Source of the DNA: Spirochaetia bacterium
Lineage (GTDB): Bacteria; Spirochaetota; Spirochaetia; CADAEX01
Direction: 5' to 3'
Assembly: GCA_017535435.1 (NCBI GenBank)
Contig: JAFXTY010000029.1
Span: 1-62,288, forward strand
Length of the DNA stretch: 62,288 nt
Within the stretch, counting starts at the first letter, position 1. Every line of letters begins with the position of its first letter. The notes beneath the pieces are model-generated. The model made no database searches. It saw only the letters and a program-made list of their open reading frames with translations, and was not told the DNA's origin. Shown piece by piece: positions 13,982 through 28,244 of this stretch. The position numbers and the translations under genes are program-made.

Positions 13982-14572
13982 ATGAAGTGGATAAAAATCT
14001 TTTTGCTTGCAGTTCTGCTGATCTCTTGTGGCAATGCTCAGAATGGCCAAAATTATCAAGCCTTCAGTGTTGCCAAGGACCTTTTTCTCCAGGGGAATTC
14101 CCAAGGTGCTCTGGAAAAGCTGGAGACCCTTGAGAAACAGAACCCGTCGTATCTTCTTCCTTTTAATCTGGATGGAAGAATAAGTCTTTTCACTGGCCAG
14201 TATGAAAGGGCAGAAAAGAGGCTTAATCATGTCCTGAAACGCAGTCCTTTGGATTTTGATGCCCTGCGCTGGATGGCCAACCTTTATCTTCTTACAGAGC
14301 GATATGAAGAGGCAGAGAAGCTGGTCTCCATAGCCCTTGAGAATTATGTGGAGGAGCCTCGGCTGCTGCTTCTTCTTGCTGCCAGCTTTAAGGAGCAGGG
14401 AAAGGTTAAGGAGGCTGTGGTTGCATATCACAGGGCGTACTTGTTCGAGGTTGAACTTGCCTATGCCCATTATGAGATGGCTCAGCTTTATTCCCAGTTT
14501 GGCCTGGAAAAGGAATGCAAGGAGCAGCTGGAACGTGCTTCGGCTCTTTCTGAGAGGAGGTTCAATGAATAG
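13982..14572 (+). CDS. TPR-repeat lipoprotein
   Basis: Lipobox LLISC followed by tandem TPR-like helical repeats. Confidence 0.8.
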   Translation: MKWIKIFLLAVLLISCGNAQNGQNYQAFSVAKDLFLQGNSQGALEKLETLEKQNPSYLLPFNLDGRISLFTGQYERAEKRLNHVLKRSPLDFDALRWMANLYLLTERYEEAEKLVSIALENYVEEPRLLLLLAASFKEQGKVKEAVVAYHRAYLFEVELAYAHYEMAQLYSQFGLEKECKEQLERASALSERRFNE

Positions 14573-15950
14573 ATGGATTATTTTCTTATATTTTTTTATT
14601 TCACTCTCTCTTCCTGTTCCAGCCTTTGAACCATTCACTCTCAGCAAAGCAATTGCAAAGGGCCTTGATAACAATCTCAGTCTTGAATTTGCGAAGCAGG
14701 AGAACCGTATAGGAATAAAAAATATGCGGATGAAGTATAGAAAATTCTTCCCCAATTTGAATGTAGGCTACTCAGCCACCGATACAGTCACTTACTATGC
14801 AGACGACAGCCATTCCAGACAGTTGAGCGCAACCTTGACCCAGCTTATTTATGACAGAGGAGTGCTTCATTCTTCCATACATCTTGAAAAGGAACGGCTT
14901 GCTCTTGAGGCTCATCAGAACAATCTTAACCGTACATTCTTTATCTTCTCGGTGATAGACGGTTATAAGAATGTGCTTGAGCTTGCAAAGGAACTGGAGA
15001 TATCAAGACAGGCGCGAAATGCAGTATCCAAGCAGGTTGAGATAGGACATCTGGAGAGAAATCTTGGAGAGATAACCCAGTTCGATTTTCTGGAACTTGA
15101 GCTGGCATTGGCAGATATGGATATACAGATAACACAGATATCTCAGAAGCTGGATGAGGCAAAATCGGCTTTTGCATCAGTTATGAATATGCATTCCAAC
15201 GATGTTCCTGTACTGGCGGGGGAATTGAACTATCTCTATGGCGGCTTTGTGACTGAGAGCAGTGATTATTACGTTTCTCAAGCCATGAAAAACAGTCTTG
15301 TTCTGCAGGAGATTGAGTTTGCAGAGCATAAGGCTCATGCCGATTATGCTCTTCTGAAGAAAAAGTATGTTCCAGATATCTCTCTTTCATGCACAGCATC
15401 AGTTTCGGGGGAATCTTATCCACTTACAGAAAAAAGCTTCTCTATATTTCTTAACCTGGATTTCGATACACCTGCACTTCCTGCCTCTATAAGTGCAGGA
15501 ATCGGTAAAAATTCTGATGAGCAGCGATATAGGAAAGTTACGGCAGATGCTGATGTGATGGGAAATTCAGAATCGCTATACTCCAGCCAGAATGGAAAGG
15601 TGGCAATGGAGCGGACCAAGTGGAATCTTGAGAAGTACAAAAGGGAATGCAGGGAGGAGATTGAGGGGCAGCATAAGGCGATTCTTGTGCTCAAGGAGAA
15701 TCTTGAGGCCGCACGGCGGCGGATTGAGCTTGAGCAGAAGAAGGTGGAGATAGAAGAACTCAAAGTTCAGCTGGGAGAGGAGAAGCGGATTGATTATGTG
15801 GAAAGCCAGATAGCGCTGGCACAGAACAGAATAAAAGTTTTCCAGACTATCTCCCGCCTCTATTCCATGGAGATTGCATTTATGAATCTTTGCGGCATCG
15901 GAGAACCTGCTTCCTCAGGCAAATACCTTATCGTAGGGAGCGGCTTATGA
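14565..15950 (+). CDS. TolC-family outer membrane channel
   Basis: Signal peptide; AIAKGLDNN, ...FFPNLN, LTQLIYDRG and two repeated OEP halves; GEITQFDFLE. Start ATG 14565 after GAGGAGG. Confidence 0.8.
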   Translation: MNRWIIFLYFFISLSLPVPAFEPFTLSKAIAKGLDNNLSLEFAKQENRIGIKNMRMKYRKFFPNLNVGYSATDTVTYYADDSHSRQLSATLTQLIYDRGVLHSSIHLEKERLALEAHQNNLNRTFFIFSVIDGYKNVLELAKELEISRQARNAVSKQVEIGHLERNLGEITQFDFLELELALADMDIQITQISQKLDEAKSAFASVMNMHSNDVPVLAGELNYLYGGFVTESSDYYVSQAMKNSLVLQEIEFAEHKAHADYALLKKKYVPDISLSCTASVSGESYPLTEKSFSIFLNLDFDTPALPASISAGIGKNSDEQRYRKVTADADVMGNSESLYSSQNGKVAMERTKWNLEKYKRECREEIEGQHKAILVLKENLEAARRRIELEQKKVEIEELKVQLGEEKRIDYVESQIALAQNRIKVFQTISRLYSMEIAFMNLCGIGEPASSGKYLIVGSGL

Positions 15951-17284
15951 GAAATCTATTCTTTTTTTTCCTGCTTATAGCTCTTTTCTCCTTGGCTTTA
16001 TTCTGCTGCCGTAAACCAGAGGAGAAGATTGAGAAGGCTGTTGAAATAAATACTGCAGTTGCTGGCAGAGAGATGGCTGCTCCTGTAATATCGGCATTTG
16101 GGTCCATTGTCTACAAAGCTAAGGCCGATGTCTATCCTACCTCCATTTCCAACGTGAAGGCATTATTTGTAGATAAAGGGATGAATGTAAGCAAAGGCGA
16201 CATTCTGGCATTGCTGGATGATGTGAAGCTCCAAGTGCAGCTGCGGCAGTCTGAGTCTGATGTACAGTCCAAGAAAGCCCTGGTTGCTTTGGCAAAAGCA
16301 CAGTTTGACGAGGGGTGCCAGAATGCGCGAAAAACTATCCTTTCTATAGACCGGATTCAATGTGCAGTGGATCAGAAGCAGAAAGAGTACGACAATCTTA
16401 AGCGCATCTATAACAACAAACTGAAGCTTCATATCATAGGGGGGCTTTCTGACGAAGAACTCCAGTCAATTAAGATGAATATGGACTCGGCAGGCAGTGC
16501 TTTAGAACAGGCACTTCTTGAACTCAGGACTGCCAGGGTGGGTTTTTCTGATAAGGATATATATGGTGCTGGATATGAGATTCCTGAGGATAAAAAAGAG
16601 TACGAAGATCTTCTGATTCAGATCAATACTGCCACCTTGAAGGCTCAGCTGGAAGCGGCCAGGGCTGAACTGGAAGCGGCCCAGTCCCAGATGGAGAATA
16701 TCAAGCTATACCTGGAAGAGACAAAAATAAAGTCTCCGATTGACGGTATTGTTGCGGAACGGTATGTGGACATAGGTGAGAAGGCAGATACTGAGACCAG
16801 GCTTTTTACCTTATTTTCAACCGAATCGGTATATGTATCTGTGACCGTGAATGCCCAGCGTTGCAATGAGATTTCTGAAGGATGCACTGCAACTGTTCGC
16901 CTGGGGTCTGCAGTTCACAACGGTGTTGTAGAACAAGTTGCCCCTTATGCAGATACAAAAACTGGTGGTAGAACATTGAAGATTGAAGTGGATAACAAGG
17001 ACAAGTCCCTTATTCCCGGCCTTTTTGCAGATGTCTTGATCACCATTGGAGAAAAACAACTCCGTCTTTCTGTACCCAAGGAGGCAGTACTGCACAAGCA
17101 GGATGATTATAGTGATGCATCCCTTTTTCTTATACGGGATGGTCATGCTTTCCTGCAGAACGTGACAGTGGATTTTATCACTGATTCAAAAGTCTTCCTG
17201 AAGGAAGGACTCAAAGATGGGGATGTGGTTGCAGTATCCCGTCTGGGACTCCTCTCTGACGGATGTGAAGTGGAGGTAAGATGA
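15947..17284 (+). CDS. RND periplasmic adaptor (membrane fusion protein) with long alpha-hairpin
   Basis: Lipoyl halves V.KGDILALLD and IKSPIDGIV...V..GE; LIPGLFADV, LSVPKEAV and GLKDGDVV; ~160-aa coiled coil. Confidence 0.88.
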   Translation: MRNLFFFFLLIALFSLALFCCRKPEEKIEKAVEINTAVAGREMAAPVISAFGSIVYKAKADVYPTSISNVKALFVDKGMNVSKGDILALLDDVKLQVQLRQSESDVQSKKALVALAKAQFDEGCQNARKTILSIDRIQCAVDQKQKEYDNLKRIYNNKLKLHIIGGLSDEELQSIKMNMDSAGSALEQALLELRTARVGFSDKDIYGAGYEIPEDKKEYEDLLIQINTATLKAQLEAARAELEAAQSQMENIKLYLEETKIKSPIDGIVAERYVDIGEKADTETRLFTLFSTESVYVSVTVNAQRCNEISEGCTATVRLGSAVHNGVVEQVAPYADTKTGGRTLKIEVDNKDKSLIPGLFADVLITIGEKQLRLSVPKEAVLHKQDDYSDASLFLIRDGHAFLQNVTVDFITDSKVFLKEGLKDGDVVAVSRLGLLSDGCEVEVR

Positions 17285-18657
17285 GAAATATTATTTGCAT
17301 TATCATATGTTTGATATGTCTCTCCTGTGGGATTATCGATTTTTCCCCTTCTGAATCCATAAAGGTTAACCCGTCAAAATACAATCAGATCATAGGAGAA
17401 AATGAAGATATTTATATCAAATATGGTTTCTCGCCAGATCATGTCTCTGCCCAGTCAGCCTTCGAGCTTCAGGATGCTGACGGCAGAGTAGGTGGTTCTT
17501 TTAAGTGGAAAGACAATACCATGGTGTTTGTTCCTTTGGAGCACCTTGAACCAGCCCGGAGATATTTGCTCAAATATGCAGGCGAGGTTTCTGATAAATC
17601 AGGGAAGGTGCATAAGTACAATATTTATACTCCTTTCTTCTATATGATAAAACAGGCTGATAAACCTGATATCACCAGAATGAATCCTGCCGATGGCAGT
17701 ACTATACAGGCCTTTGATAAAATAGTTTTCTCTTTTTCGGAGCCTATGTCCCTTCCTTCCTTTCTTAGGGGTTTGACTGTCGCTCCTGATACTGAATATT
17801 CAGATGAATGGAATGGGGATCATACCCAGCTGATCTTGACACCAAGATCTGGTTGGAAAGAACATCAGGTATACAGTTTTTCTTTTGCAGGTTCGATAAC
17901 ATCAGCCGAAGGAATTCCTATTGCCGAACCAAAGACCTTCTATCTGTATTCCAGCACCGGTGCTGCTCTGCCATCTGTAATATCAATTGATACGGCATTG
18001 AATGACGGTCTTTCATATCCTCTGCTCCTGTCTGGTCTGGAAGGGGTAAAAAGTAAAGATGCTATAAGAATAACTTTCTCTGTACCGATGGATGCTGATG
18101 CCACAGAAGACGCTTTTTCCATCACTCCAGATATCCTTGGCCATACCTGCTGGCTTGATGACAGCACCTTGGTATTTGTTCCAGAAACAGAGTGGCAGGG
18201 CGAAACTTCATATTCGGTATCAGTAGGTACATCTGCCAGGAGTAGAAAAGGGCTCTGTCTCTCAGATCAGTTTGAGATCAGTTTTACTCCGGATGTTACA
18301 CCTCTTAAGCTTCTTTATATAGAAGGTAAGGCTGCCGATGGATTCCCCATCTCAGTTTTTAATCCTCATCAGGAGGTTGATATTGATGTTGGTGATGCTC
18401 TCTTGCCGGAAAACACTTATATCTTTGGCTTTGTATTCAACCATACATTTACGACATCAGAGGAAAAGGAACATATTTATTCAGGCATAAAGCTTAAAGG
18501 AATTTTCCCGCCATCACTTTCTTCTCCGAAGGTCATGTCTCTTTTCTGGTCTGGGGACAGTAAGATTCAGGTCACTTATACAGGTTTTGAACCAGAGGGT
18601 CGCATTTATTCATTGGATGTGAACGGTCTTGAGAAAATAACCTTGAGGACGCGATGA
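17281..18657 (+). CDS. Lipoprotein with tandem bacterial Ig-like (SbsA/Big_5-type) domains
   Basis: Lipobox LSC; repeated units with P.DG, I.F.FS.PM, W......L.F.P and Y...... Confidence 0.72.
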   Translation: MRNIICIIICLICLSCGIIDFSPSESIKVNPSKYNQIIGENEDIYIKYGFSPDHVSAQSAFELQDADGRVGGSFKWKDNTMVFVPLEHLEPARRYLLKYAGEVSDKSGKVHKYNIYTPFFYMIKQADKPDITRMNPADGSTIQAFDKIVFSFSEPMSLPSFLRGLTVAPDTEYSDEWNGDHTQLILTPRSGWKEHQVYSFSFAGSITSAEGIPIAEPKTFYLYSSTGAALPSVISIDTALNDGLSYPLLLSGLEGVKSKDAIRITFSVPMDADATEDAFSITPDILGHTCWLDDSTLVFVPETEWQGETSYSVSVGTSARSRKGLCLSDQFEISFTPDVTPLKLLYIEGKAADGFPISVFNPHQEVDIDVGDALLPENTYIFGFVFNHTFTTSEEKEHIYSGIKLKGIFPPSLSSPKVMSLFWSGDSKIQVTYTGFEPEGRIYSLDVNGLEKITLRTR

Positions 18658-20012
18658 TGAAAAAAATATTTTTGATTGTATTTGTTTTTGTCTCCTGCGG
18701 CATTGCAGAAGAATACACTCATATGAAATCACCAGAGGTTTCAGACTGCTCCTATGGTGAAGGCTGTATACAGGTAACTTTTTCTTCTGAAATGAAAAGG
18801 GGAATTACGGAGCAGGCTTTCTCTTGTCTGTGCAATGATGATGTGGCTTCTGGTATGTTTGTGTGGTATGAGAAAAAAATGTGTTTTTATCCAGACGAGG
18901 GAATCAAGGATAAAAGCAGATATGAGGTGGAGGTTGGAACCAGGGCCGAGGACAGATATGGAAATTCTCTCAGGGAGACCTTCAGCTATGTTTTCTCCAC
19001 CTTGGAAAAAGAAGAGAGTTTATTTGTTCAAAAAATGAACATATCTGATGGCGATGTTGTTGCAGACCTTAGGCAGCCTATCGAGATAACATTTTCCAGT
19101 CCAGTGGATAAGGCAACGTTTTACCAGGGTTTTGGTATATCCCCTTTTGTCCCAGGAGCCCACTCCTTTAAGGACAATTGTCAGACTGTTGTCTTTGTGC
19201 CTCTTGAAAAGCTGGACTGGAGTTCATCATATACCGTCACTCTGAAAAAGAGTATAGCAGACCAATATGGAAATACACTTGGGGCCGATTGTGCTGTCAC
19301 ATTTTCCACCTCCAGGGAGCCAGCCTGCTCTCTTGAGAAAGTATGTGTGAATAATGGGGTGGAGCTTATATCAGGAGGTGCTGTAAACAAAGGAATAGAA
19401 AAAGATGCGGCGCTGGTGCTGACATATTCGGGTACAGTAGATTCTAAAGTTGTAAGAAATCCTGTTGTTATATCTCCAGTTCAGGATTATACAACAGATT
19501 GGAACGACGGGTACACCCAATGTACCGTAACCTTCAAAAAGCCCCTTCCGTATAAGACTCTTCTTGAACTTTCAGCAGGTAATGATAAGAGGTATCTCCT
19601 TTATGTGGATGGGGAAAGTTCAAAACCTCTAGAGGTGCAGAAAATTAAATTCTATCAGGATTATACGGCGGATGCAGGTGAAGTGCTGGAGCAGGGCAGC
19701 GGAATCGTGTTTGAAACTGGTTCTCAGGCTTGCTTTGAGTTTGTTTTATCGGCAGGGAGCAGCGCGGAAATTCTGACTGCAGATGCATATGGAGCGGTGG
19801 ATGTGGCTGTGTCCCGGGGGAACCTGACCATAGATCTGGAACGGCTTGAGACCGGAAAGAGAGAATCGGGGATTTTATACATAAGAGTATTCTGTTCAAT
19901 TACAGCAGGAACAATACAAACTCCGGTGGTTGTCTCTGTCAATGGAATGTTGAAAGATTCCAACGGCAATACCTTGGAAAAAGATTATGTGTTGAGGATA
20001 AATGCACTGTGA
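18654..20012 (+). CDS. Lipoprotein with tandem bacterial Ig-like (SbsA/Big_5-type) domains
   Basis: Lipobox VSC; I.VTFSSEM, IEITFSSPVD, F.P...L....Y.V and D.YGN.L....F.FST repeats. Confidence 0.72.
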   Translation: MMKKIFLIVFVFVSCGIAEEYTHMKSPEVSDCSYGEGCIQVTFSSEMKRGITEQAFSCLCNDDVASGMFVWYEKKMCFYPDEGIKDKSRYEVEVGTRAEDRYGNSLRETFSYVFSTLEKEESLFVQKMNISDGDVVADLRQPIEITFSSPVDKATFYQGFGISPFVPGAHSFKDNCQTVVFVPLEKLDWSSSYTVTLKKSIADQYGNTLGADCAVTFSTSREPACSLEKVCVNNGVELISGGAVNKGIEKDAALVLTYSGTVDSKVVRNPVVISPVQDYTTDWNDGYTQCTVTFKKPLPYKTLLELSAGNDKRYLLYVDGESSKPLEVQKIKFYQDYTADAGEVLEQGSGIVFETGSQACFEFVLSAGSSAEILTADAYGAVDVAVSRGNLTIDLERLETGKRESGILYIRVFCSITAGTIQTPVVVSVNGMLKDSNGNTLEKDYVLRINAL

Positions 20013-22843
20013 GAAAATGGGATTTTTGCATACAGCATCCTTTCTCTATACTGATCTGCTGGCTTGGTATGGCCCTTTTGGGATTAGGCAGCCTTTTCAA
20101 GCTGGACATAGGATTTTATCCCGAGGTTTCTGTTCCGTATGCAACTATAACTACAGAGTTTTCTGGTATGCCGGCAGACGATGTGGAGAAGCTGGTCACA
20201 ATACCTCTTGAAAACAGCCTTTCTGCTGTAAAGAATATCAGACAGATTTTCTCTACGTCAAAAAGAGGCGAAAGCATTATCAACCTTGAGTTGGGCTGGA
20301 GTGCAGATATGGCCGTCACAGGGAGTGATATCAGGAATAGGATTGATGCAGTATACCCTTTTCTACCTGAAAAAGTTTCCAGACCGATACTTTCATTCAA
20401 ATCATTTGCTGATTCTCATATCATGACGCTGGCTGTGTTTCCTAAGCAGGGATTCCCCTTTCCCAGGGCTTCGTCATTGGTGGATAGAGAACTGAAAAGC
20501 CGTATTTTGTCGCTGGATGGAATTGCACAGGTTCATCTTATAGGGTGCACTGAACCTGAGATTCAGATAGATGTTAATTATCCTCTTCTCATGGCAGCCC
20601 ATTCCCTTGATATTCAGAAAGTGGCAGAAGTTGTCCGGAAATGTTTTTTCCGTTATCCTGTCGGGAATATAGATGAAGGGGAGCACTGCTATTCGATTAA
20701 AGCCGAGACAGATATACAGCAGCCTGATGACCTCCGGCATATTCCGTTGGATATGGAAGGAGCTATGACAGTAGGTGATGTAGCTTCCGTGGTTCTGGGA
20801 GAAAAGGAGAGGGATTCGTTTTTCTGTCATAATGGGCAAAATGGAATAGGCCTGAGGATTATAAAGACAGGGGGAAGCAGCCTTCTTAAAACTTGTAGGG
20901 AACTTCGGAGTATGGTGGGACAGCTATCCTCTGTTTACGGGAATCTTTTTGATATTGAGATTATAGAAGACAGCTCAATGCCCCTTGAACAGGAGATATG
21001 CAATCTGTCAGTCACTATCGTGGCAGGTATCATCTGTGCCTGCATTATCATAATGATTCTGATGCAGAACATTCATGTGGCGTTCATTGTCATCCTGTCC
21101 CTACCGTTCTCGCTTCTGCCTCTGTTTGTCTGCATGCACTGCGCCGGCATATCATTGAACATAATCACACTCTCTGCACTTGCTGTAGGTTCTGGAATGG
21201 TTTTCGACAACGCTGTGGTGGTCACAGGATATCTTCTTGAGAATAAACCTTATTATAGTTGTGTTCCTGCAGTCATCGGCTCCACCCTCACTACAATCAT
21301 CATCTTTGTTCCTGTCATTCTTCTCCCTGGCCTCATGGGCAAAGTTTTTTCAACGCTGGCAGTCACTGTCATCATGTATCTTGCTATTTCCTGCCTTGTA
21401 TCTCTTACCTTGACTCCGGCGTTATTTGCCATGATGAAAGATGGCATCAGATATAGTCCGAAAGCTTTTGCTTTTGAGAAATGGTATGAAAAATATCTGA
21501 ATAGAATGAGGACAAAGAAGATTATACTTGCTTTCATTGCCTCTGCTGTTCTGCTTCCATTCTGCCTTTTGTTTCTTATACAGTTTAAGACAGTTCCGGA
21601 GATGAAATCAAACAATGTTGATATACAGGTTGCATTCCCTTATGGATATCCTTTCTCGTCCTATATGGCTTGGGCCGGCGAGCTGGAAGAGCAGATTTAT
21701 AAAAGCCGGCTATGTTCAGATATCACAATTTATGGCGGTTATGACAGAGATTCACAGCAGGATTTGAACATATTCATATTCAATATGCGGAATGTGGATA
21801 AGGGTAGGGTTGAGCCGCTGTTTGATGATTCAAAATGGGATTATCAGGTACTGGAATCCAAGAACTTTCTTTCTGCTCTGGTAGGGGATGACAGTCTCTA
21901 TTCCATCACTTCTTCTGATCGGGCAACTCTTGAGAAAGAAGTTTTATCTGTCGGAGATAGAGCGCGGAAAGATGGAGTTTCAGCTACAGCAGTCCATGGT
22001 ATGAGGATTTTCCCGGAATACATGATTTCAGTCTCTGATAATATTGTTTCTGCAGCCCTCGCTCCTTCTGATATTTTCAATGCTGTTTCACTGGCTGTCG
22101 AGGGCTGTGTGGTATCCCAGATGGAACTGGATGGGGAGCCTGTGGATATCAGACTCAGATATGGAAAAGAGTTTGTGGATACACCTGAGAAGATAGCTGC
22201 TCTTCAGTTTAAGAATGATGGAAAGATGTTGTTTACCCAACCTTTTATTCAGCTGAAGAAAAGGTATGATTACTTTGCCCTCGACAGGTTGAACCGGCAG
22301 AATGCTATACTTCTGACTTTCGTACCTGACAATGGAAATGGTTATGGTGCCAGGAAAATCTCAGATGCGCTGACTAAGATTCATAAGCGGGAAATCTTTA
22401 TTGTTTTTTCAGGAGCACTGGTGTTTATCTGGTTCGTGCTTGCAATCCAGTTTGAGTCCTGCCGGAAGCCATTTCTTATTCTTTGTACCGTTCCTATGGG
22501 TGTTTCGGGAAGCCTTCTTGCCCTGTTTGTGGCGGGAAAGAGCCTGAATATCAGTTCTGTACTGGGGCTTATGATACTCTCTGGAACTGGGGTTAACTCA
22601 GGAATACTTATTTTATCTGATGCAGCCCGAGGTGTTCCTATTGCACGGGCCGCTTTATCCCGATTCAGAACAGTTTGCCTGACCCTTTTGTCGACAGTTA
22701 TGACTCTGCTGCCTGTTGCTCTTTTTGATTCGAATCCAATTCAGAATTGCGCCTCGATTTCTCTGCTTGGTGGACTTCTGTTCGGTACAGCAGCCCTGTT
22801 TGCACTTGTGCCTGCTCTTGTAAAGGAGGATTGCAGTGGATAA
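20009..22843 (+). CDS. AcrB/AcrD/AcrF-family RND permease subunit
   Basis: YPEVSVP...G...DVEKLVTIPLE; TM4 GMVFDNAVVV; TM5 GSTLTTIIIFVP; TM8-12 with QFES..KPFLI, GVNSGIL and RFRTVCLT..TVMTLLP. Confidence 0.9.
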   Translation: MRKWDFCIQHPFSILICWLGMALLGLGSLFKLDIGFYPEVSVPYATITTEFSGMPADDVEKLVTIPLENSLSAVKNIRQIFSTSKRGESIINLELGWSADMAVTGSDIRNRIDAVYPFLPEKVSRPILSFKSFADSHIMTLAVFPKQGFPFPRASSLVDRELKSRILSLDGIAQVHLIGCTEPEIQIDVNYPLLMAAHSLDIQKVAEVVRKCFFRYPVGNIDEGEHCYSIKAETDIQQPDDLRHIPLDMEGAMTVGDVASVVLGEKERDSFFCHNGQNGIGLRIIKTGGSSLLKTCRELRSMVGQLSSVYGNLFDIEIIEDSSMPLEQEICNLSVTIVAGIICACIIIMILMQNIHVAFIVILSLPFSLLPLFVCMHCAGISLNIITLSALAVGSGMVFDNAVVVTGYLLENKPYYSCVPAVIGSTLTTIIIFVPVILLPGLMGKVFSTLAVTVIMYLAISCLVSLTLTPALFAMMKDGIRYSPKAFAFEKWYEKYLNRMRTKKIILAFIASAVLLPFCLLFLIQFKTVPEMKSNNVDIQVAFPYGYPFSSYMAWAGELEEQIYKSRLCSDITIYGGYDRDSQQDLNIFIFNMRNVDKGRVEPLFDDSKWDYQVLESKNFLSALVGDDSLYSITSSDRATLEKEVLSVGDRARKDGVSATAVHGMRIFPEYMISVSDNIVSAALAPSDIFNAVSLAVEGCVVSQMELDGEPVDIRLRYGKEFVDTPEKIAALQFKNDGKMLFTQPFIQLKKRYDYFALDRLNRQNAILLTFVPDNGNGYGARKISDALTKIHKREIFIVFSGALVFIWFVLAIQFESCRKPFLILCTVPMGVSGSLLALFVAGKSLNISSVLGLMILSGTGVNSGILILSDAARGVPIARAALSRFRTVCLTLLSTVMTLLPVALFDSNPIQNCASISLLGGLLFGTAALFALVPALVKEDCSG

Positions 22844-25826
22844 CAATTTTATGAACTTTCGGCTTAAACTTATTTTTCTTGCCCTTTGTATCCTTATTTT
22901 CCTTGCTATAAAAGGACATATCAGATTGGGGTATGCCCCAGAACTTGAGAAAAAAAATATTGCAATTGCCTTTGACTATTATGGTGCGTTTGAGAAAGAG
23001 GTAGAAAGTCTTGTTTCCAGCCTTGAAGAGGCCTATATGGAATTGGAGGGAATAAAGGATATACACTCAGTATCTGAACCTGGAAAAGGATACATCCTTT
23101 GCATGTTCTCCGATAAGACCAAACTCGATGAAGCCTATGTTCAGGTCTCTGATATCACATCCAATGTATGGTCAGATTTCCCAGCTGGAGTGAACCGTCC
23201 TTCCATAACACGTAGCTCCAGGGATACATATCCTGTCTACATTTCTTATTTTCCGTTGGAAAAAGAAGCTGATGCTGATCTTATCAAGAAAGCATATGAG
23301 GCGGTACCTGGAGTGGGGAATGTAGAACTTGGTGGTCTGAAGAAGAAGGAACTGATGGTGGAGTTGACGTCTGGGCGTTCCGCCGGCATGGCGCTGCCCG
23401 GCGAGGTGCTGGGCAGCAGGCTGCGGAGCAGCAACCTTGCACGCAAGGTTGCCATGCCAGGAGGAGAGACGCTGGTTCTTTCTTCCCGCCTCTCTTCGGC
23501 AGCGGATTTCAGCCAGGTGCATATGACTCCCAGCTTAAAGCTTTCTGATCTGGCAGATATTAAGCATCAGTTGGCAGTGTCCCAAAGTCTAGGACATATC
23601 AATGGGCAATCTGTACTGCTCTTTTTTATAATGAAATCAGGAGAAGGAAATACTGTCCGGCTTTGCCGAGAACTGGAGAAAGTGACGTCACAATTCAACG
23701 GCGGTAAACTTTACAGTCTTGGGAAAAAGATAGAAAAATCATTCATAGGTTCCTCTTCTATACTCCTTCTCCTGTTTATTTTTTTATTGTTTGGCCAGTG
23801 GTTCAAGACCAGAAATATTCATCTTGCAGCACAGGCTATCTGCCGTTGTATAATAGCTCTCCTTGTCGCCATCTCTTCCGTCACTGCCATAGGTCAACAG
23901 GTTGATATGACGGTGATGATGGCCCTTTTCTTAGTTGTTGCTTTTTCGTTTATGGGCGGGAGAGTACAGGTTCAGAATAATGTACCACAACATTACAAAG
24001 AACCGATAAACAAACAGGATATATTGATACTCCGCAGCATCGGCAGAAAGAGCATAAACGATTTCACCAGTGAAGATATTGAGAAATCTGGCAAATGGGC
24101 ATATAAGTTCTGGCAACAGCTTGGAATAAAGTCTCCTTTTTACCGCCGTTTATTTGGTGACTGGCGAGAGGATGATATTAGTAATGTAAATCAGATTAAA
24201 GAAATTAAACTTCTTAAAGCCAAAGACCAGAATGAGGCAGTTTCTTATATAAAGGTTAAAGTAAAAGATGGCACGCTGTTTAGAGGTGATAAAACAAATT
24301 CTGATACTGGTTTAAAAATTAACATAGGAAGGCAGGTATATGGTGATACTGTTACTTATGCAAACCGAGCATATTCACGAGAAAGAAAACATGACGAATA
24401 TGAAGCATTTAATAATTATTTAGCAAAGATGTCTATACTTGCCAGCATTGGAGATATTGTTGAAAGGTCTATATTGCTTGATACAAAGATAAATGATGAC
24501 CAGGAAAACCCGTATAGGAGTTTTATGCACCATTTCTACTGTATTGCAAACATAGGAAACAGTAGTTATTTGGTTAAACTTTTAGTTGATGAAATCAATT
24601 CAGAAGGGGGAGATACTTACAGGGCTTACAATGTAAAAGACATAAAAATAGCACCTGTTGTCGGAATCAAGGTTTATAAGCCTTCACGTACAACAAGTGC
24701 TGATGGAAGTTCAACTTCCACTTACACTGTAGCAGACCTGCATTCACTTGTCAAGAAATATGATAAAGCGTTTCATCCGAGACATTGTGAACATCGTCCG
24801 AAAGAGATTCTTGCTGTACCTGTGTTATTAATCTTTTTAACAATGATTATTTTACTTTATGCCCCAGTTTACCTTATGAACCTGGTGCTTCCATTCTGTG
24901 CCGCTCTAACAGCTGGTTGCTGTGCTTCTGCTCTCTTTTTGTATGTTACAAAGAAAATCATATTGCCACAATTCCGTATCCCTCTGTGGGGCTTTTCGCC
25001 GATCCTGCTTTTTGCCCTGGGATTGTCCCCGTTTTCCCCGTTCTCGTCCTTTGGCACTGATGTTTCTTTCTCTCTTGAATATGATAGCGGAACTTCTTTT
25101 CATTTTATCCAGCAAAGTGCACTTGATATTGAAGCTGACCTTCTGAAATGGAATGCTTTTGATTGTCTTACGCTTCATATCGATCAGGGAAAGGCCTCTT
25201 TTACTGTCCTGGGGGTTAAGAAACGCGATATTCTGGCTAAAATCAATAAATTATCAGTTCTGTATCCAGAAATATTCTTTTATATTCCGGAAAAACATAC
25301 CAGACATTCCATTGATGTGACTGTTTATGGTAATGATGTGTCTGAAATCGAAAATAATATATTGCAACTGGCAAAATATGTGAATAAATATACAAATAAT
25401 GTGAATATTATCTATAATTTTAAATCTGATGTGACAAATATTGTGTTTGAGATTCCCGTGAAGTGTACTTCGGCAGGACTTTATCCCTATGAGGTTTATA
25501 AAACTCTCTATTACACTGTCTCAGAGCCAGTGGTGGACAAATATTTTGCTGATGATATGGAGACTGATGTGAAAATCCGAGGTGATGTCCGGTATCGAGA
25601 AACCCTTTCCGGGCTCCTTTCTGTTCCGGTTCTTTCCCCATTTGGCATGGCGGGGGAGGTGGGTGACTATATCAATGTCCGAAGGGAATCAGCTCAGGGA
25701 CGTATTTATCATAAGAACAGGATGAGGATCTTGAGCTTCTCTGTAACTGGAATCAGAAGGGCAAGACTTCGGGAAATAGTCTCCAAATTCCCTTTTACCG
25801 GCAGCTGCCATGGAGAAGTGGGTTAA
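22836..25826 (+). CDS. Degenerate AcrB-like subunit lacking TM8-12, with an in-frame ~275-aa foreign domain
   Basis: N-terminal RND porter domain (GAFEKEVE, LPAGVNRP-like FPAGVNRPSI); TM2-4; insert at ~23961-24795; TM5-7; second periplasmic domain ending RIYHKNRMR; stop before TM8. Confidence 0.75.
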   Translation: MDNNFMNFRLKLIFLALCILIFLAIKGHIRLGYAPELEKKNIAIAFDYYGAFEKEVESLVSSLEEAYMELEGIKDIHSVSEPGKGYILCMFSDKTKLDEAYVQVSDITSNVWSDFPAGVNRPSITRSSRDTYPVYISYFPLEKEADADLIKKAYEAVPGVGNVELGGLKKKELMVELTSGRSAGMALPGEVLGSRLRSSNLARKVAMPGGETLVLSSRLSSAADFSQVHMTPSLKLSDLADIKHQLAVSQSLGHINGQSVLLFFIMKSGEGNTVRLCRELEKVTSQFNGGKLYSLGKKIEKSFIGSSSILLLLFIFLLFGQWFKTRNIHLAAQAICRCIIALLVAISSVTAIGQQVDMTVMMALFLVVAFSFMGGRVQVQNNVPQHYKEPINKQDILILRSIGRKSINDFTSEDIEKSGKWAYKFWQQLGIKSPFYRRLFGDWREDDISNVNQIKEIKLLKAKDQNEAVSYIKVKVKDGTLFRGDKTNSDTGLKINIGRQVYGDTVTYANRAYSRERKHDEYEAFNNYLAKMSILASIGDIVERSILLDTKINDDQENPYRSFMHHFYCIANIGNSSYLVKLLVDEINSEGGDTYRAYNVKDIKIAPVVGIKVYKPSRTTSADGSSTSTYTVADLHSLVKKYDKAFHPRHCEHRPKEILAVPVLLIFLTMIILLYAPVYLMNLVLPFCAALTAGCCASALFLYVTKKIILPQFRIPLWGFSPILLFALGLSPFSPFSSFGTDVSFSLEYDSGTSFHFIQQSALDIEADLLKWNAFDCLTLHIDQGKASFTVLGVKKRDILAKINKLSVLYPEIFFYIPEKHTRHSIDVTVYGNDVSEIENNILQLAKYVNKYTNNVNIIYNFKSDVTNIVFEIPVKCTSAGLYPYEVYKTLYYTVSEPVVDKYFADDMETDVKIRGDVRYRETLSGLLSVPVLSPFGMAGEVGDYINVRRESAQGRIYHKNRMRILSFSVTGIRRARLREIVSKFPFTGSCHGEVG

Positions 25827-25913: not shown

Positions 25914-28244
25914 ATGAAAAGAAGATTGATAACATCTGCACTGCCTTATGTAAACAATATTCCGCACCTGGGAAACCTTATCCAGATGCTTTCCGGTGAT
26001 GTTTTTGCCCGGTTCTGCCGGCTCAGGGGTTATGATACCCTATATATCTGCGGTACTGACGAGTATGGTACTGCCACCGAGACCAGAGCTCTGGAGGAGA
26101 AGAAGACCCCACGGGAACTGTGTGACTACTATTTTGCAGAACATACAAAGATTTACGACTGGTTCCATATTGATTTTGACAAGTTCGGCCGCACCTCCAA
26201 TGATGAGTGCACCGAAGTGACCCAGGGGCTTTTCAACGACCTGGACAAGGCCGGACTTATAACTGAGCACACAAACAAGCAGCTTTTCTGTCCTCATTGC
26301 AACATGTTCCTATCCGACCGGTATGTGCGCGGTATCTGCCCTAAGTGCGGCGCTGATGATGCCCGGGGCGATCAGTGCGACGGCTGCGGTTCCCTGCTGG
26401 ATCCGATTGATCTTAAGGAGCCTAAGTGTGTGACCTGTGGATCTACTCCAGAGGTAAGGGAGACCAAGCACCTTTACATAAACCTTCCTGCCATCAGCGG
26501 CAAGCTGGAAGCTTGGATGGACAAGGTGAGCAAGGATGGCAAGTGGTCTGACAATGCAATAAACACTACCAAGTCCTGGCTCAAGGCAGGTCTCAACGAA
26601 CGGGCTATCACCCGTGACCTCAAGTGGGGTATCCCTGTTCCAAAAGCTGGCTATGAGAACAAAGTGTTCTATGTATGGTTCAATGCCCCGATCGGATATA
26701 TCTCCATAACTGCTCAGCTGGCAAACGAGCTTAAGAAAGCCGGCAAGGCAAGCTTTGACTGGAAGAGCTGGTGGCTCCCGGAGGAAAGCGAGGAGGCCAA
26801 GGGCAAGGAAGATATTGAGCTCTTCCAGTTCATCGGAAAGGACAATATCCCATTCCATACAGTGATCTTCCCATGCACACTGCTGGGATCCGGCCACAAC
26901 TGGACAAAGCTGTTCCATATGAGCTCATCTGAATACTTGAACTACGAGGATGGCAAGTTCAGCAAGTCCCGCGGCGTAGGCGTATTCGGAAGCGATGCCA
27001 TTGCCACTGGTATTCCTGCTGATGCATGGCGTTTCTATATCTTCTACAACCGGCCGGAGAAATCAGACTTCCAGTTCACCTGGAAGGATTTCCAGGAAAA
27101 GATGAACAGCGAACTTATCGGAAACCTGGGCAACTTGGTGAACCGCACCCTTCTGTTTGTCAACAAATACTATGACGGCAAGATTCCGGAGGCTCCTGTG
27201 GACGAGGCTCTGTGGGCCGATATCCATGCACGGGAAGCCAAGATTGCCGAGCTTCTTGAGTGGGCAGAACTTAAAGATGCATTCCACGAGATGTTTGCCA
27301 TCTCCGACATCGCCAACAAAGCATTCCAGGCTGCCGAGCCATGGAAAACCAGGAACACCGACCCAGAGCTGGCTGCCAAGCTTATCCATAACCTGTGCTA
27401 TGTGATCAAGGACCTTATGATCATGATGCATCCGTATATGCCACAGTACACTCAGAAGGTGATGAGCTATTTCGGCGCCTCAATCTTCGAGAGCCGCGTG
27501 GATCTTGGCTCGAAGCCTGGAATGGGCTGGGACGCTGTGGGCAAGACCGAAGGGCTTTCCACAGTAGGGCCGACAGAGGTTTTCTTCAAACCTATGGACA
27601 AGAAGACTATGGAATCATTCCGGGATCAGTTCTCCGGCAACCAGAAGGACCGCAAAGAGGCAAAGCCACAGCAGGCCCAGCCGCAGAAGCAGCAGCCTAA
27701 AAAGCAGAAGGCTCCAGAGCCTGAAGTGCTGCCCGCTGCGGAGCAGCCCGCATTCTTTGCCAAGAATATACGGCTCAAGGTGGCTAAGATTGTCAGCGTA
27801 GAGCGGAACCCCGAGAGCGACAAGCTTTATATTGAACACCTGGATGACGGAAGCGGCGAGGACCGGGTTATCCAGAGCGGCCTGGTGCCATACCTGACTC
27901 CGGAGCAGCTTCTGGGCAAGCACATTATCCTGGCTGACAATCTTAAGCCACGTAAGATGCGTGGGGTTGAGAGCCGCGGTATGCTGCTGGCTGCCGACTA
28001 CAAGGATGCCGATGGCAAAGAATGCGTAGAGGTGCTTTCTGCACCTTGGGCAGCACCTGGAACGAATGTAGTTCTTGAGGGTGACGATGTGAATGCTGTT
28101 AAACCGGACAATATTGAGGCAGATATGTTCTTCAGCATTGAGATCAATGTAGTGGATAAAAATGTGGAGATAGGGGGCAAGAAACTGACTGCCGATGGAA
28201 AGGTTCTTACTACCGAATTCACTGTGAACGGCGGGGTGCACTGA
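25914..28244 (+). CDS. metG: Methionyl-tRNA synthetase with C-terminal tRNA-binding domain
   Basis: ITSALPYVNNIPHLGN (HIGH), Zn knuckle, FIGKDNIPFH, KFSKS (KMSKS) and an OB-fold C-terminus. Confidence 0.97.
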   Translation: MKRRLITSALPYVNNIPHLGNLIQMLSGDVFARFCRLRGYDTLYICGTDEYGTATETRALEEKKTPRELCDYYFAEHTKIYDWFHIDFDKFGRTSNDECTEVTQGLFNDLDKAGLITEHTNKQLFCPHCNMFLSDRYVRGICPKCGADDARGDQCDGCGSLLDPIDLKEPKCVTCGSTPEVRETKHLYINLPAISGKLEAWMDKVSKDGKWSDNAINTTKSWLKAGLNERAITRDLKWGIPVPKAGYENKVFYVWFNAPIGYISITAQLANELKKAGKASFDWKSWWLPEESEEAKGKEDIELFQFIGKDNIPFHTVIFPCTLLGSGHNWTKLFHMSSSEYLNYEDGKFSKSRGVGVFGSDAIATGIPADAWRFYIFYNRPEKSDFQFTWKDFQEKMNSELIGNLGNLVNRTLLFVNKYYDGKIPEAPVDEALWADIHAREAKIAELLEWAELKDAFHEMFAISDIANKAFQAAEPWKTRNTDPELAAKLIHNLCYVIKDLMIMMHPYMPQYTQKVMSYFGASIFESRVDLGSKPGMGWDAVGKTEGLSTVGPTEVFFKPMDKKTMESFRDQFSGNQKDRKEAKPQQAQPQKQQPKKQKAPEPEVLPAAEQPAFFAKNIRLKVAKIVSVERNPESDKLYIEHLDDGSGEDRVIQSGLVPYLTPEQLLGKHIILADNLKPRKMRGVESRGMLLAADYKDADGKECVEVLSAPWAAPGTNVVLEGDDVNAVKPDNIEADMFFSIEINVVDKNVEIGGKKLTADGKVLTTEFTVNGGVH

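Follow-up and report, generated by a model that had tools for sequence, protein, structure and literature searches.

Conserved scaffolds that carry swappable conflict domains are already known, and in this study, which was based on a 62,288-nucleotide contig of a Spirochaetia bacterium (JAFXTY010000029.1; this whole stretch is called the window below), we describe such an arrangement in a membrane protein from an operon for a resistance-nodulation-division (RND) type envelope complex. The polyvalent proteins that were described by Iyer et al. (2017, PMC5512222) have two to fifteen effector domains and are encoded by phages or conjugative elements next to virion or type IV secretion system (T4SS) genes. 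The polymorphic toxins such as CdiA, Rhs and the MuF toxins consist of a conserved scaffold and a conflict domain that varies between strains, is delimited by short conserved junction motifs and is exchanged by recombination. In the Zorya system, an inner-membrane ion-driven complex signals phage invasion to nuclease effectors (PMC11946911), and in entry exclusion by TraS or Eex, a cytoplasmic allele-specific segment of an inner-membrane protein recognises a protein that is delivered by the invader (PMC11493245).

In the window, a chromosomal operon of seven genes encodes an RND-type envelope complex, and its last gene (22836..25826; all features given here lie on the + strand) specifies a 996-aa subunit that we call the half-RND. 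The loop between its transmembrane helices four and five (TM4 and TM5; residues 372-659, 23949..24812) is a dedicated slot with exchangeable phage-type domains, which varies between strains. The domain in the slot of the window is one of the modules of the polyvalent proteins, i.e., LPD3 with its usual head and tail; the PBECR3 and MuF_C alleles of other strains come from the same repertoire and mosaicism by module shuffling is common to both. Unlike the polyvalent proteins, the half-RND is host-chromosomal, is a polytopic membrane protein and has its one module embedded in a loop, without a virion or T4SS context and without an ART domain; it was ruled out as a polyvalent protein itself, since only one module is present and the gene belongs to a chromosomal operon, with RND genes before it and metG after it. 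Its N-terminal 370 residues are homologous to the RND permeases, including MdtBC, with which the operon also shares the combination of an outer-membrane efflux protein (OEP), a membrane-fusion protein (MFP) and an RND gene with a second RND gene. In contrast to these permeases, the half-RND has 7 helices instead of 12, no proton relay and a swappable TM4-TM5 domain of 190-290 aa, and the operon encodes two Ig-like proteins. The scaffold logic of the polymorphic toxins is likewise present, but here the variable part lies inside the protein, on the cytoplasmic side, and there is neither an immunity gene nor a secretion-type N-terminus. With Zorya and other membrane-anchored systems, the locus possibly shares the principle of an ion-driven envelope complex with nucleic-acid-directed cytoplasmic effectors that differ by subtype; there is no homology (PADLOC was negative), the effector lies inside the membrane protein and is phage-derived, and sensing is putative here. 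TraS and Eex are small and element-encoded, whereas the half-RND is a chromosomal RND-like scaffold, the variable segment of which is a whole folded phage domain. What is new is the scaffold, the internal position of the domain and the capture of phage-injected modules by the host. Full-text literature searches (polyvalent protein, LPD3, RND with anti-phage, domain insertion) returned no description of this architecture, and no RND or transmembrane fusions are mentioned by Iyer et al. (2017, PMC5512222).

Allelic variation of the cassette slot

A whole-protein search yielded 40 orthologues of the half-RND, which were aligned using MAFFT, and the TM4-TM5 segments were then clustered and annotated with Pfam. 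The N-terminal flank (371 aa) and the C-terminal flank (~338 aa) were conserved in the 40 orthologues, while the TM4-TM5 segment differed. Clustering separated eight unrelated cassette families, i.e., four LPD3 kinds, two PBECR3 kinds, MuF_C and one orphan, as well as empty alleles. The window and 13 other sequences belong to type A (LPD3-long, 223-290 aa, the shortest being truncated sequences). The other LPD3 kinds are type E (189 aa, nine sequences), type F (50 bits, 196 aa; P0019) and type G (248 aa; P0031). PBECR3 was found in type C (30 bits, ~195 aa; P0013, P0014, P0030 and P0033) and in type D (98 bits, 190-221 aa; P0015, P0017, P0022 and P0032), and MuF_C in type H (64 bits, 198 aa; P0034). 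Type B (216-226 aa; P0012, P0016 and P0020) had no known family; it matched nothing in Pfam or PHROG, a word-indexed search gave no homologue beyond this RND family, and it represents an orphan domain. In the empty alleles (P0035, P0037, P0039, P0040 and the genome locus L014), an unannotated loop of 4-12 aa was present. Among 181 phage modules, the type A inserts took three separate well-supported places (a clade of 12, P0009 and P0011), and the cassette lineages therefore number ten in all.

Two observations concern single cassette types. By eye, the type B cassette (L003, 8001-10778) contains KHPDFLL...IVETRQ, which is PD-(D/E)xK-like (PD...E.K), although no nuclease identity is claimed. 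The type D cassette of P0032 (L005, 8001-10757) is a mosaic, the first ~55 residues of which are near-identical to those of other PBECR3 cassettes, with the segment that contains HIRNEHGD replaced by HELKRNKN and a diverged core; this change may affect the putative active site.

The gene order was OEP, MFP, Big_5, Big_5, RND, half-RND, metG and FemAB in every locus that was examined (eleven syntenic loci), the hosts of which are uncultured rumen Spirochaetia from yak, buffalo, goat, cattle and sheep. At these loci, no gene was gained or lost with any cassette, no immunity gene and no phage or T4SS genes were found, and the gap between the half-RND and metG was ~84-88 nt regardless of the cassette. 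Orthologues with the empty loop occupy the same syntenic locus, which bears out the claim of an earlier note on the window that a domain had been grafted onto a transporter subunit. These loci also bear on the possibility that the cassette is the toxic part of an offensive polymorphic toxin, which would be excised and leave the cell via the RND/TolC channel to attack competitors. The combination of a conserved scaffold and a hypervariable domain between short conserved junction motifs (RENNSxLFQ ... VNxHTN) resembles the organisation of such toxins. Nevertheless, we consider this very improbable: the cassette lies within the protein on the cytoplasmic side and not at the C-terminus, none of the loci has an immunity gene downstream and, as is established, RND pumps take their substrates from the periplasm or the membrane and not folded cytoplasmic domains. 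A polymorphic toxin system in the usual sense was ruled out by the internal cassette and by metG being the next gene at every locus.

The LPD3 module and its phage relatives

The earlier note had placed a phage polyvalent-protein-like domain of LPD3 type at 23961-24795. These bounds held well, as the alignment with the 40 orthologues, including four empty alleles, set the variable loop at 23949-24812 and the phage-homologous module of ~265 aa, which consists of a head, an LPD3 core and a tail, was delimited at 23988..24785 using phmmer, the model and Foldseek. The highly conserved helical head (INKQDILILRSIGRKS...KSPFYRRLFGDWR; 24006..24167) was defined by the alignment of host and phage copies, the LPD3 core (24276..24602) by the PF18798 match at residues 481-589 and the conserved C-terminal helix (TVADLHSLVKKYDK; 24720..24773) by alignment. 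All of the motifs that had been quoted are in frame: SIGRKSINDFTSEDI at 24036-24080, KSPFYRRLFGDWR at 24129-24167, NSDTGLKINI at 24297-24326, HHFY at 24528-24539, YLVKLLVDE at 24567-24593, RAYNVKDIKI at 24621-24650 and TVADLHSLVKKYDK at 24726-24767. The insert had also been called AT-rich, which agrees with a G+C content of 0.362 compared to 0.446 in the N-terminal and 0.405 in the C-terminal flank, with 200-nt windows down to 0.31-0.34.

The LPD3 assignment was confirmed by Pfam (PF18798, cut-off 27; 37.1 bits with the whole protein as the query and 40.1 bits with just the insert; E = 4e-9 to 5e-10), by the phmmer homologues and by structural comparison. A search with the 278-aa insert as the query against 1.84 billion representative proteins gave 706 matches, in which residues 10-275 align as one block; the homologues reach a length of 5240 aa, and identity over 265 aa is 48-54% in the best of them. 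Nearly all of them lie inside large multi-domain proteins, and ART-PolyVal is listed together with LPD3 for most of the Pfam-annotated matches. In the consensus of the phage-side alignment, the ART domain directly follows the module, whereas the host copy stands alone, without ART. A search with the type A alignment found the module in 26 IMG/VR viral contigs, for example in a 2658-aa open reading frame with LPD3, ART-PolyVal and LPD23 that adjoins an M15 endolysin. Taken from these relatives, the family of the insert is assigned to the phage-origin modules of polyvalent, virion-injected proteins.

The type D cassette shares 37% identity (E = 1e-26) with the C-terminal end of the portal proteins of Burkholderia phages, and it has a further match in a phage jhp1044-like mosaic protein from Helicobacter cinaedi, a group that was highlighted by Iyer et al. 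(2017, PMC5512222). A tblastn search against the GenBank phages found nothing for the type A or type B cassettes, and the PHROG search of the insert of the window gave a weak match only (E = 0.006), which was to a family of unknown function with 2434 positions. Among the closest homologues of the module outside the RND proteins is P0043 (L044, 10001-13348), which has LPD3, ART-PolyVal and a weak Zeta_toxin match and adjoins a holin and an Amidase_3 gene. The genome has teichoic-acid genes, and the locus resembles what is left of a prophage in a Gram-positive gut bacterium and not in a spirochaete.

The insert model was confident (pLDDT 84, pTM 0.84) and matched phage LPD3 and PolyVal-ART proteins in the Foldseek search of BFVD (E = 4e-7 to 6e-4). 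The suggestion in the earlier note that the domain might have a nuclease-type fold was not supported. At E <= 1, the insert had no PBECR or other nuclease Pfam match, its profile matched none of the sequences of solved structures, and the Foldseek search of PDB gave nothing significant (best E = 0.29), with weak NTF2/cystatin-like matches and no BECR structure among the 50 best of 468 matches at E <= 10. A BECR/PBECR RNase or another nuclease fold was thus dropped for the LPD3 insert, as neither Pfam nor the PDB sequences or folds supported it.

In the head, residues I31, G32, K34, F39, G59, K61, S62, P63, F64, R66, G70, W72 and R73 are invariant in the host and phage copies, and the family consensus reads LRSIGRKSINDFT...KSPFFRxWFGDWR. 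The C-terminal helix, with the consensus xxDLxxLVKxYDKxF, keeps L264, V268 and D272. Within the module, the LPD3 core is more variable than the head and retains an invariant N, D, H, Y and E (N107 in A3 numbering; D119, H194, Y197 and E215 in A2 numbering). In a comparison of host and phage copies, the head and the tail appear to be better conserved than the core, which suggests that an interaction has been retained. This would fit exclusion by mimicry, in which a tethered and catalytically irrelevant copy of the module binds an incoming polyvalent protein, its partner or its target at the membrane and titrates it as a dominant-negative decoy. Every identifiable cassette comes from families that are injected by phages or conjugative elements, the host LPD3 lacks the ART-PolyVal alongside which LPD3 is listed in most polyvalent-protein matches, such a mechanism requires no immunity gene, and TraS and Eex, which act in recipients on the TraG of the donor via cytoplasmic regions, are a precedent (PMC11493245). 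On the other hand, the type D PBECR3 (98 bits) is well conserved and looks like an intact enzyme domain. Moreover, the nearest phage modules, which lie in Firmicutes-type elements, are only ~53% identical, a low value for a specific mimic unless the true donors have escaped sampling. On balance, we regard mimicry as a serious but unlikely explanation.

Replacement of cassettes between strains

In a tree that was built from the concatenated flanks, the cassette types are dispersed over the branches, and scaffolds that are 94-98% identical in protein bear unrelated cassettes. Three contig pairs with ~99% DNA identity over ~2.8 kb upstream and 1-2 kb downstream, including metG, drop to 45-59% identity over 570-870 bp at the slot, where cassette E faces cassette F (L006 and L041), an LPD3-long variant faces type G (L043 and L042) and PBECR3 faces MuF_C (L005 and L007). 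The loci that are nearest to the window, L003 (type B) and L008 (type C), have flanks with 85-90% DNA identity, and their slot is unalignable at ~40-60%. These comparisons largely establish that whole cassettes have been replaced between strains, and recently. Within single metagenomes, contigs with the DNA of the head or the tail of the window run on into other LPD3 cores, with translated loose ends such as FNSADTMGDFGSS..., TVMASSPAT... and ...GDWREDDITSVTVVD; mosaic alleles therefore coexist in one population.

Traces of the ancestral loop (FSF-MG ... RNVN) persist at the junctions. Within one clade of scaffolds (L005, L006, L007 and L041; P0015-P0034), four cassette families (PBECR3, two LPD3 kinds and MuF_C) share the boundary motifs (R/K)(E/D)NNSxL(F/Y)Q on the N-terminal side and VNxHTN on the C-terminal side, which are also conserved in DNA. 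These could be recombination anchors or a processing site. An origin of the boundary motif as an inter-module linker of phages is unsupported, as the pattern NS.[LIM][FY]Q was absent from 210 polyvalent and related proteins in which it was sought.

A further reading of the earlier note, in which the insert is a domain-sized mobile unit, was not upheld. There are no terminal repeats or target duplication at the junctions, where only short chance-level repeats occur, no intein or HNH/LAGLIDADG Pfam match was found in the half-RND, and among the 250 proteins that were retrieved by the whole-protein and insert searches there was no other membrane host of the module. A transposon, an intein or a homing element was ruled out by this lack of junction repeats and of intein or homing-endonuclease motifs. 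The mobile entity is instead the allele cassette, which is exchanged at a single dedicated slot. From the breakpoints, phage modules would be captured through rare illegitimate uptake and would then spread between strains by homologous recombination via the conserved TM-coding flanks, which is the simplest route; in the LPD3-long type, cores may be exchanged between the conserved head and tail.

Expression and selective constraint

Twenty public runs from 11 studies contain 60-100% of the sampled words of the window, and a 99%-identical 996-aa protein has been recorded from other assemblies. Both junctions are crossed without interruption by a contig of 21 kb from the sheep gut (98.5% identical) and by contigs of other studies. 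Contigs from rumen or gut metatranscriptomes lie on the insert (24226-24376, 24408-24558 and 24607-24767) and across the 3' junction (24624-24868). A metagenome-derived sequence with a drop in G+C in the insert might raise the suspicion of an assembly chimera or a pseudogene. The contigs from several independent studies that span both junctions rule out a chimera, and more than 40 intact orthologues, purifying selection and the RNA contigs on the cassette also count against an artefact or a pseudogene, the probability of which we consider to be negligible.

Among the type A orthologues, dN/dS was 0.21-0.32 in the cassette and 0.12-0.21 in the flanks, with 63-70% amino-acid identity retained at a dS of 0.6-1.2; in a nearly identical type E pair, it was 0.33 in the cassette and 0.18-0.23 in the flanks. 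The resident cassettes are under purifying selection. These values are relevant to a neutral explanation, in which illegitimate recombination with phage DNA fills a permissive loop with passenger domains that have no role. Empty alleles exist and appear to be viable, the cassettes are AT-rich relative to their flanks and LPD3 has no known function, all of which could be expected of passengers. This explanation is, however, improbable considering the dN/dS of 0.21-0.33 and the amino-acid identity that the type A copies keep. In addition, this one site has been filled in frame on at least eight to ten independent occasions, with no other membrane host among the 250 retrieved proteins, the invariant residues of the family are kept, and conspecific strains show replacement of the cassettes and not their decay.

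The half-RND as a scaffold

The insert had been placed in frame between TM4 and TM5 of an RND subunit, a position on which the orthologue alignment, the RND profile and the model agree. The half-RND matches ACR_tran (PF00873) with 83.8 bits (cut-off 28), the best stretch comprising only residues 13-282. In the orthologue profile, residues 32-375 match residues 33-412 of the solved RND pumps, which cover TM1, the porter domain and TM2-TM4, and F-S-F stands opposite the D407/D408 proton-relay pair of AcrB. The conserved N-terminal flank (22836..23948), which was delimited from ACR_tran, the RND alignment and the helices of the model, thus contains TM1, a periplasmic porter-like domain and TM2-TM4 without the proton-relay aspartates. 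The C-terminal flank (24813..25826) holds TM5-TM7 and a C-terminal periplasmic alpha/beta domain, with no TM8-TM12, according to the orthologue alignment and the model. The full-length AlphaFold model was of low confidence (pLDDT 66, pTM 0.40) and was used for the helix positions only, not for domain packing; it predicted helices at residues 2-30, 290-325, 328-351 and 358-376 before the insert and at 656-675, 678-707 and 717-733 after it, followed by the alpha/beta domain (741-995). The seven-helix architecture was common to all of the orthologues in the alignment. A canonical RND permease was ruled out by the seven helices compared to twelve in two repeats, the soluble alpha/beta C-terminus and the lack of a D407/D408-type pair; the half-RND is a non-pumping RND-like subunit that lacks the proton-relay aspartate pair of working pumps. 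The TM4-TM5 loop is predicted to be cytoplasmic because of the RND topology and the basic NNRKGR loop of the empty alleles, in line with the earlier note.

Since the cassette sits on the non-pumping subunit of a heteromeric pump and the operon is a conserved core locus, a physiological role may be considered, in which a cytoplasmic ligand- or RNA-binding domain would tune the activity or the assembly of the RND complex, unrelated to invaders. Such a regulator appears to be quite improbable, however, as regulatory domains do not normally give way to unrelated folds between 99%-identical strains and all of the recognisable cassettes are conflict-associated phage families.

Proposed function of the locus

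Based on the sequence comparisons, the locus probably takes part in phage-host conflict. A possible membrane-anchored sensor/effector for anti-phage defence had already been put forward in the earlier note. The best explanation, which we favour while holding it as tentative, is that the cassette is a tethered effector or specificity module that acts on invaders and is coupled to the envelope complex. In such a system, the RND-like complex would span the envelope and hold the cassette at the cytoplasmic face, where it would act on whatever is brought in by a phage or conjugative element during invasion. The PBECR3 cassettes, which are predicted RNases, would act as enzymes and LPD3 as a binding module, and the access to or the activity of the cassette might be coupled to the state of the envelope complex. 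Frequency-dependent selection that is exerted by changing invaders could maintain the diversity of the cassettes. It is conceivable, but short of being likely, that the locus represents a previously unrecognised anti-invader class, in which an envelope RND-type machine is loaded with captured domains of injected proteins that are swapped in an arms race. If this is true, the invaders' own weapons would be turned against them at the point of entry.

Several points weigh against the tethered module. The operon lies among housekeeping genes and not in a defence island, and the half-RND alleles and the RND protein had no match at E <= 0.01 in PADLOC-DB 2.0 except a chance-level one to DrmMII (E = 0.009). 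No activity is known for LPD3, to which Iyer et al. (2017, PMC5512222) assign no function and which they omit from the potentially enzymatic LPDs. The model of the insert has no solved homologue, no spirochaete donor phage was identified, and the metatranscriptome contigs have a low depth, so that carry-over of DNA is possible. Active PBECR3 RNases without a co-varying immunity gene would presumably need gating or a narrow target. The sensing of an invasion by the complex is putative, and the functional statements concern uncultured rumen metagenome-assembled genomes for which they were inferred from sequence.

Irrespective of its role, the locus is a natural case of repeated in-frame domain replacement in a polytopic membrane protein, in which empty, filled and mosaic alleles can be compared, and it is a system that is suited to studying domain grafting and exchange. 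The capture of modules by the host also offers a handle on the roles of LPD3 and PBECR3 and hence on the polyvalent proteins, a large and almost wholly uncharacterised class. If the conflict reading is true, an RND-type envelope machine would join the bacterial anti-invader scaffolds, and the slot would provide a hypervariable marker locus for phage-host dynamics in the rumen spirochaete populations.

The operon and its neighbourhood

The first gene of the operon, which is included for context, encodes a TPR protein (13982..14572; Pfam TPR_19/TPR_16 and others). It is followed by the TolC-like OEP (14337..15950; Pfam OEP, 75 bits), which was present in all of the syntenic loci and the true start of which is probably later than 14337, because its orthologues have 461 aa. 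The periplasmic adaptor MFP (15890..17284; Pfam HlyD_D23 and HlyD_3) and the two Big_5 Ig-like proteins (17281..20012, i.e., 17281-18657 and 18654-20012; Pfam Big_5, 82 and 78 bits) precede the full-length RND permease of 944 aa (20009..22843; Pfam ACR_tran, 394 bits), with which the half-RND gene overlaps by 8 nt. When aligned to MdtB, this permease has D-N in TM4 where MdtB and AcrB have D-D, lacks the lysine of TM10 and retains the arginine of TM11; the whole RND complex may differ from an ordinary proton-driven drug pump. The conserved housekeeping gene metG (25914..28244) comes next, with no immunity-like gene between it and the half-RND.

Two further observations were made on the nucleotide sequence. 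The G+C content has a local spike of 0.62 at 23300-23500, inside the periplasmic domain of the half-RND, compared to ~0.42-0.45 in the surroundings. Between related genomes, the DNA identity of the RND operon (19935-25826) is ~55-85%, in contrast to ~79-96% for the adjacent metG (25914-28244), and it would appear that the whole envelope operon is fast-evolving, beyond the cassette alone.

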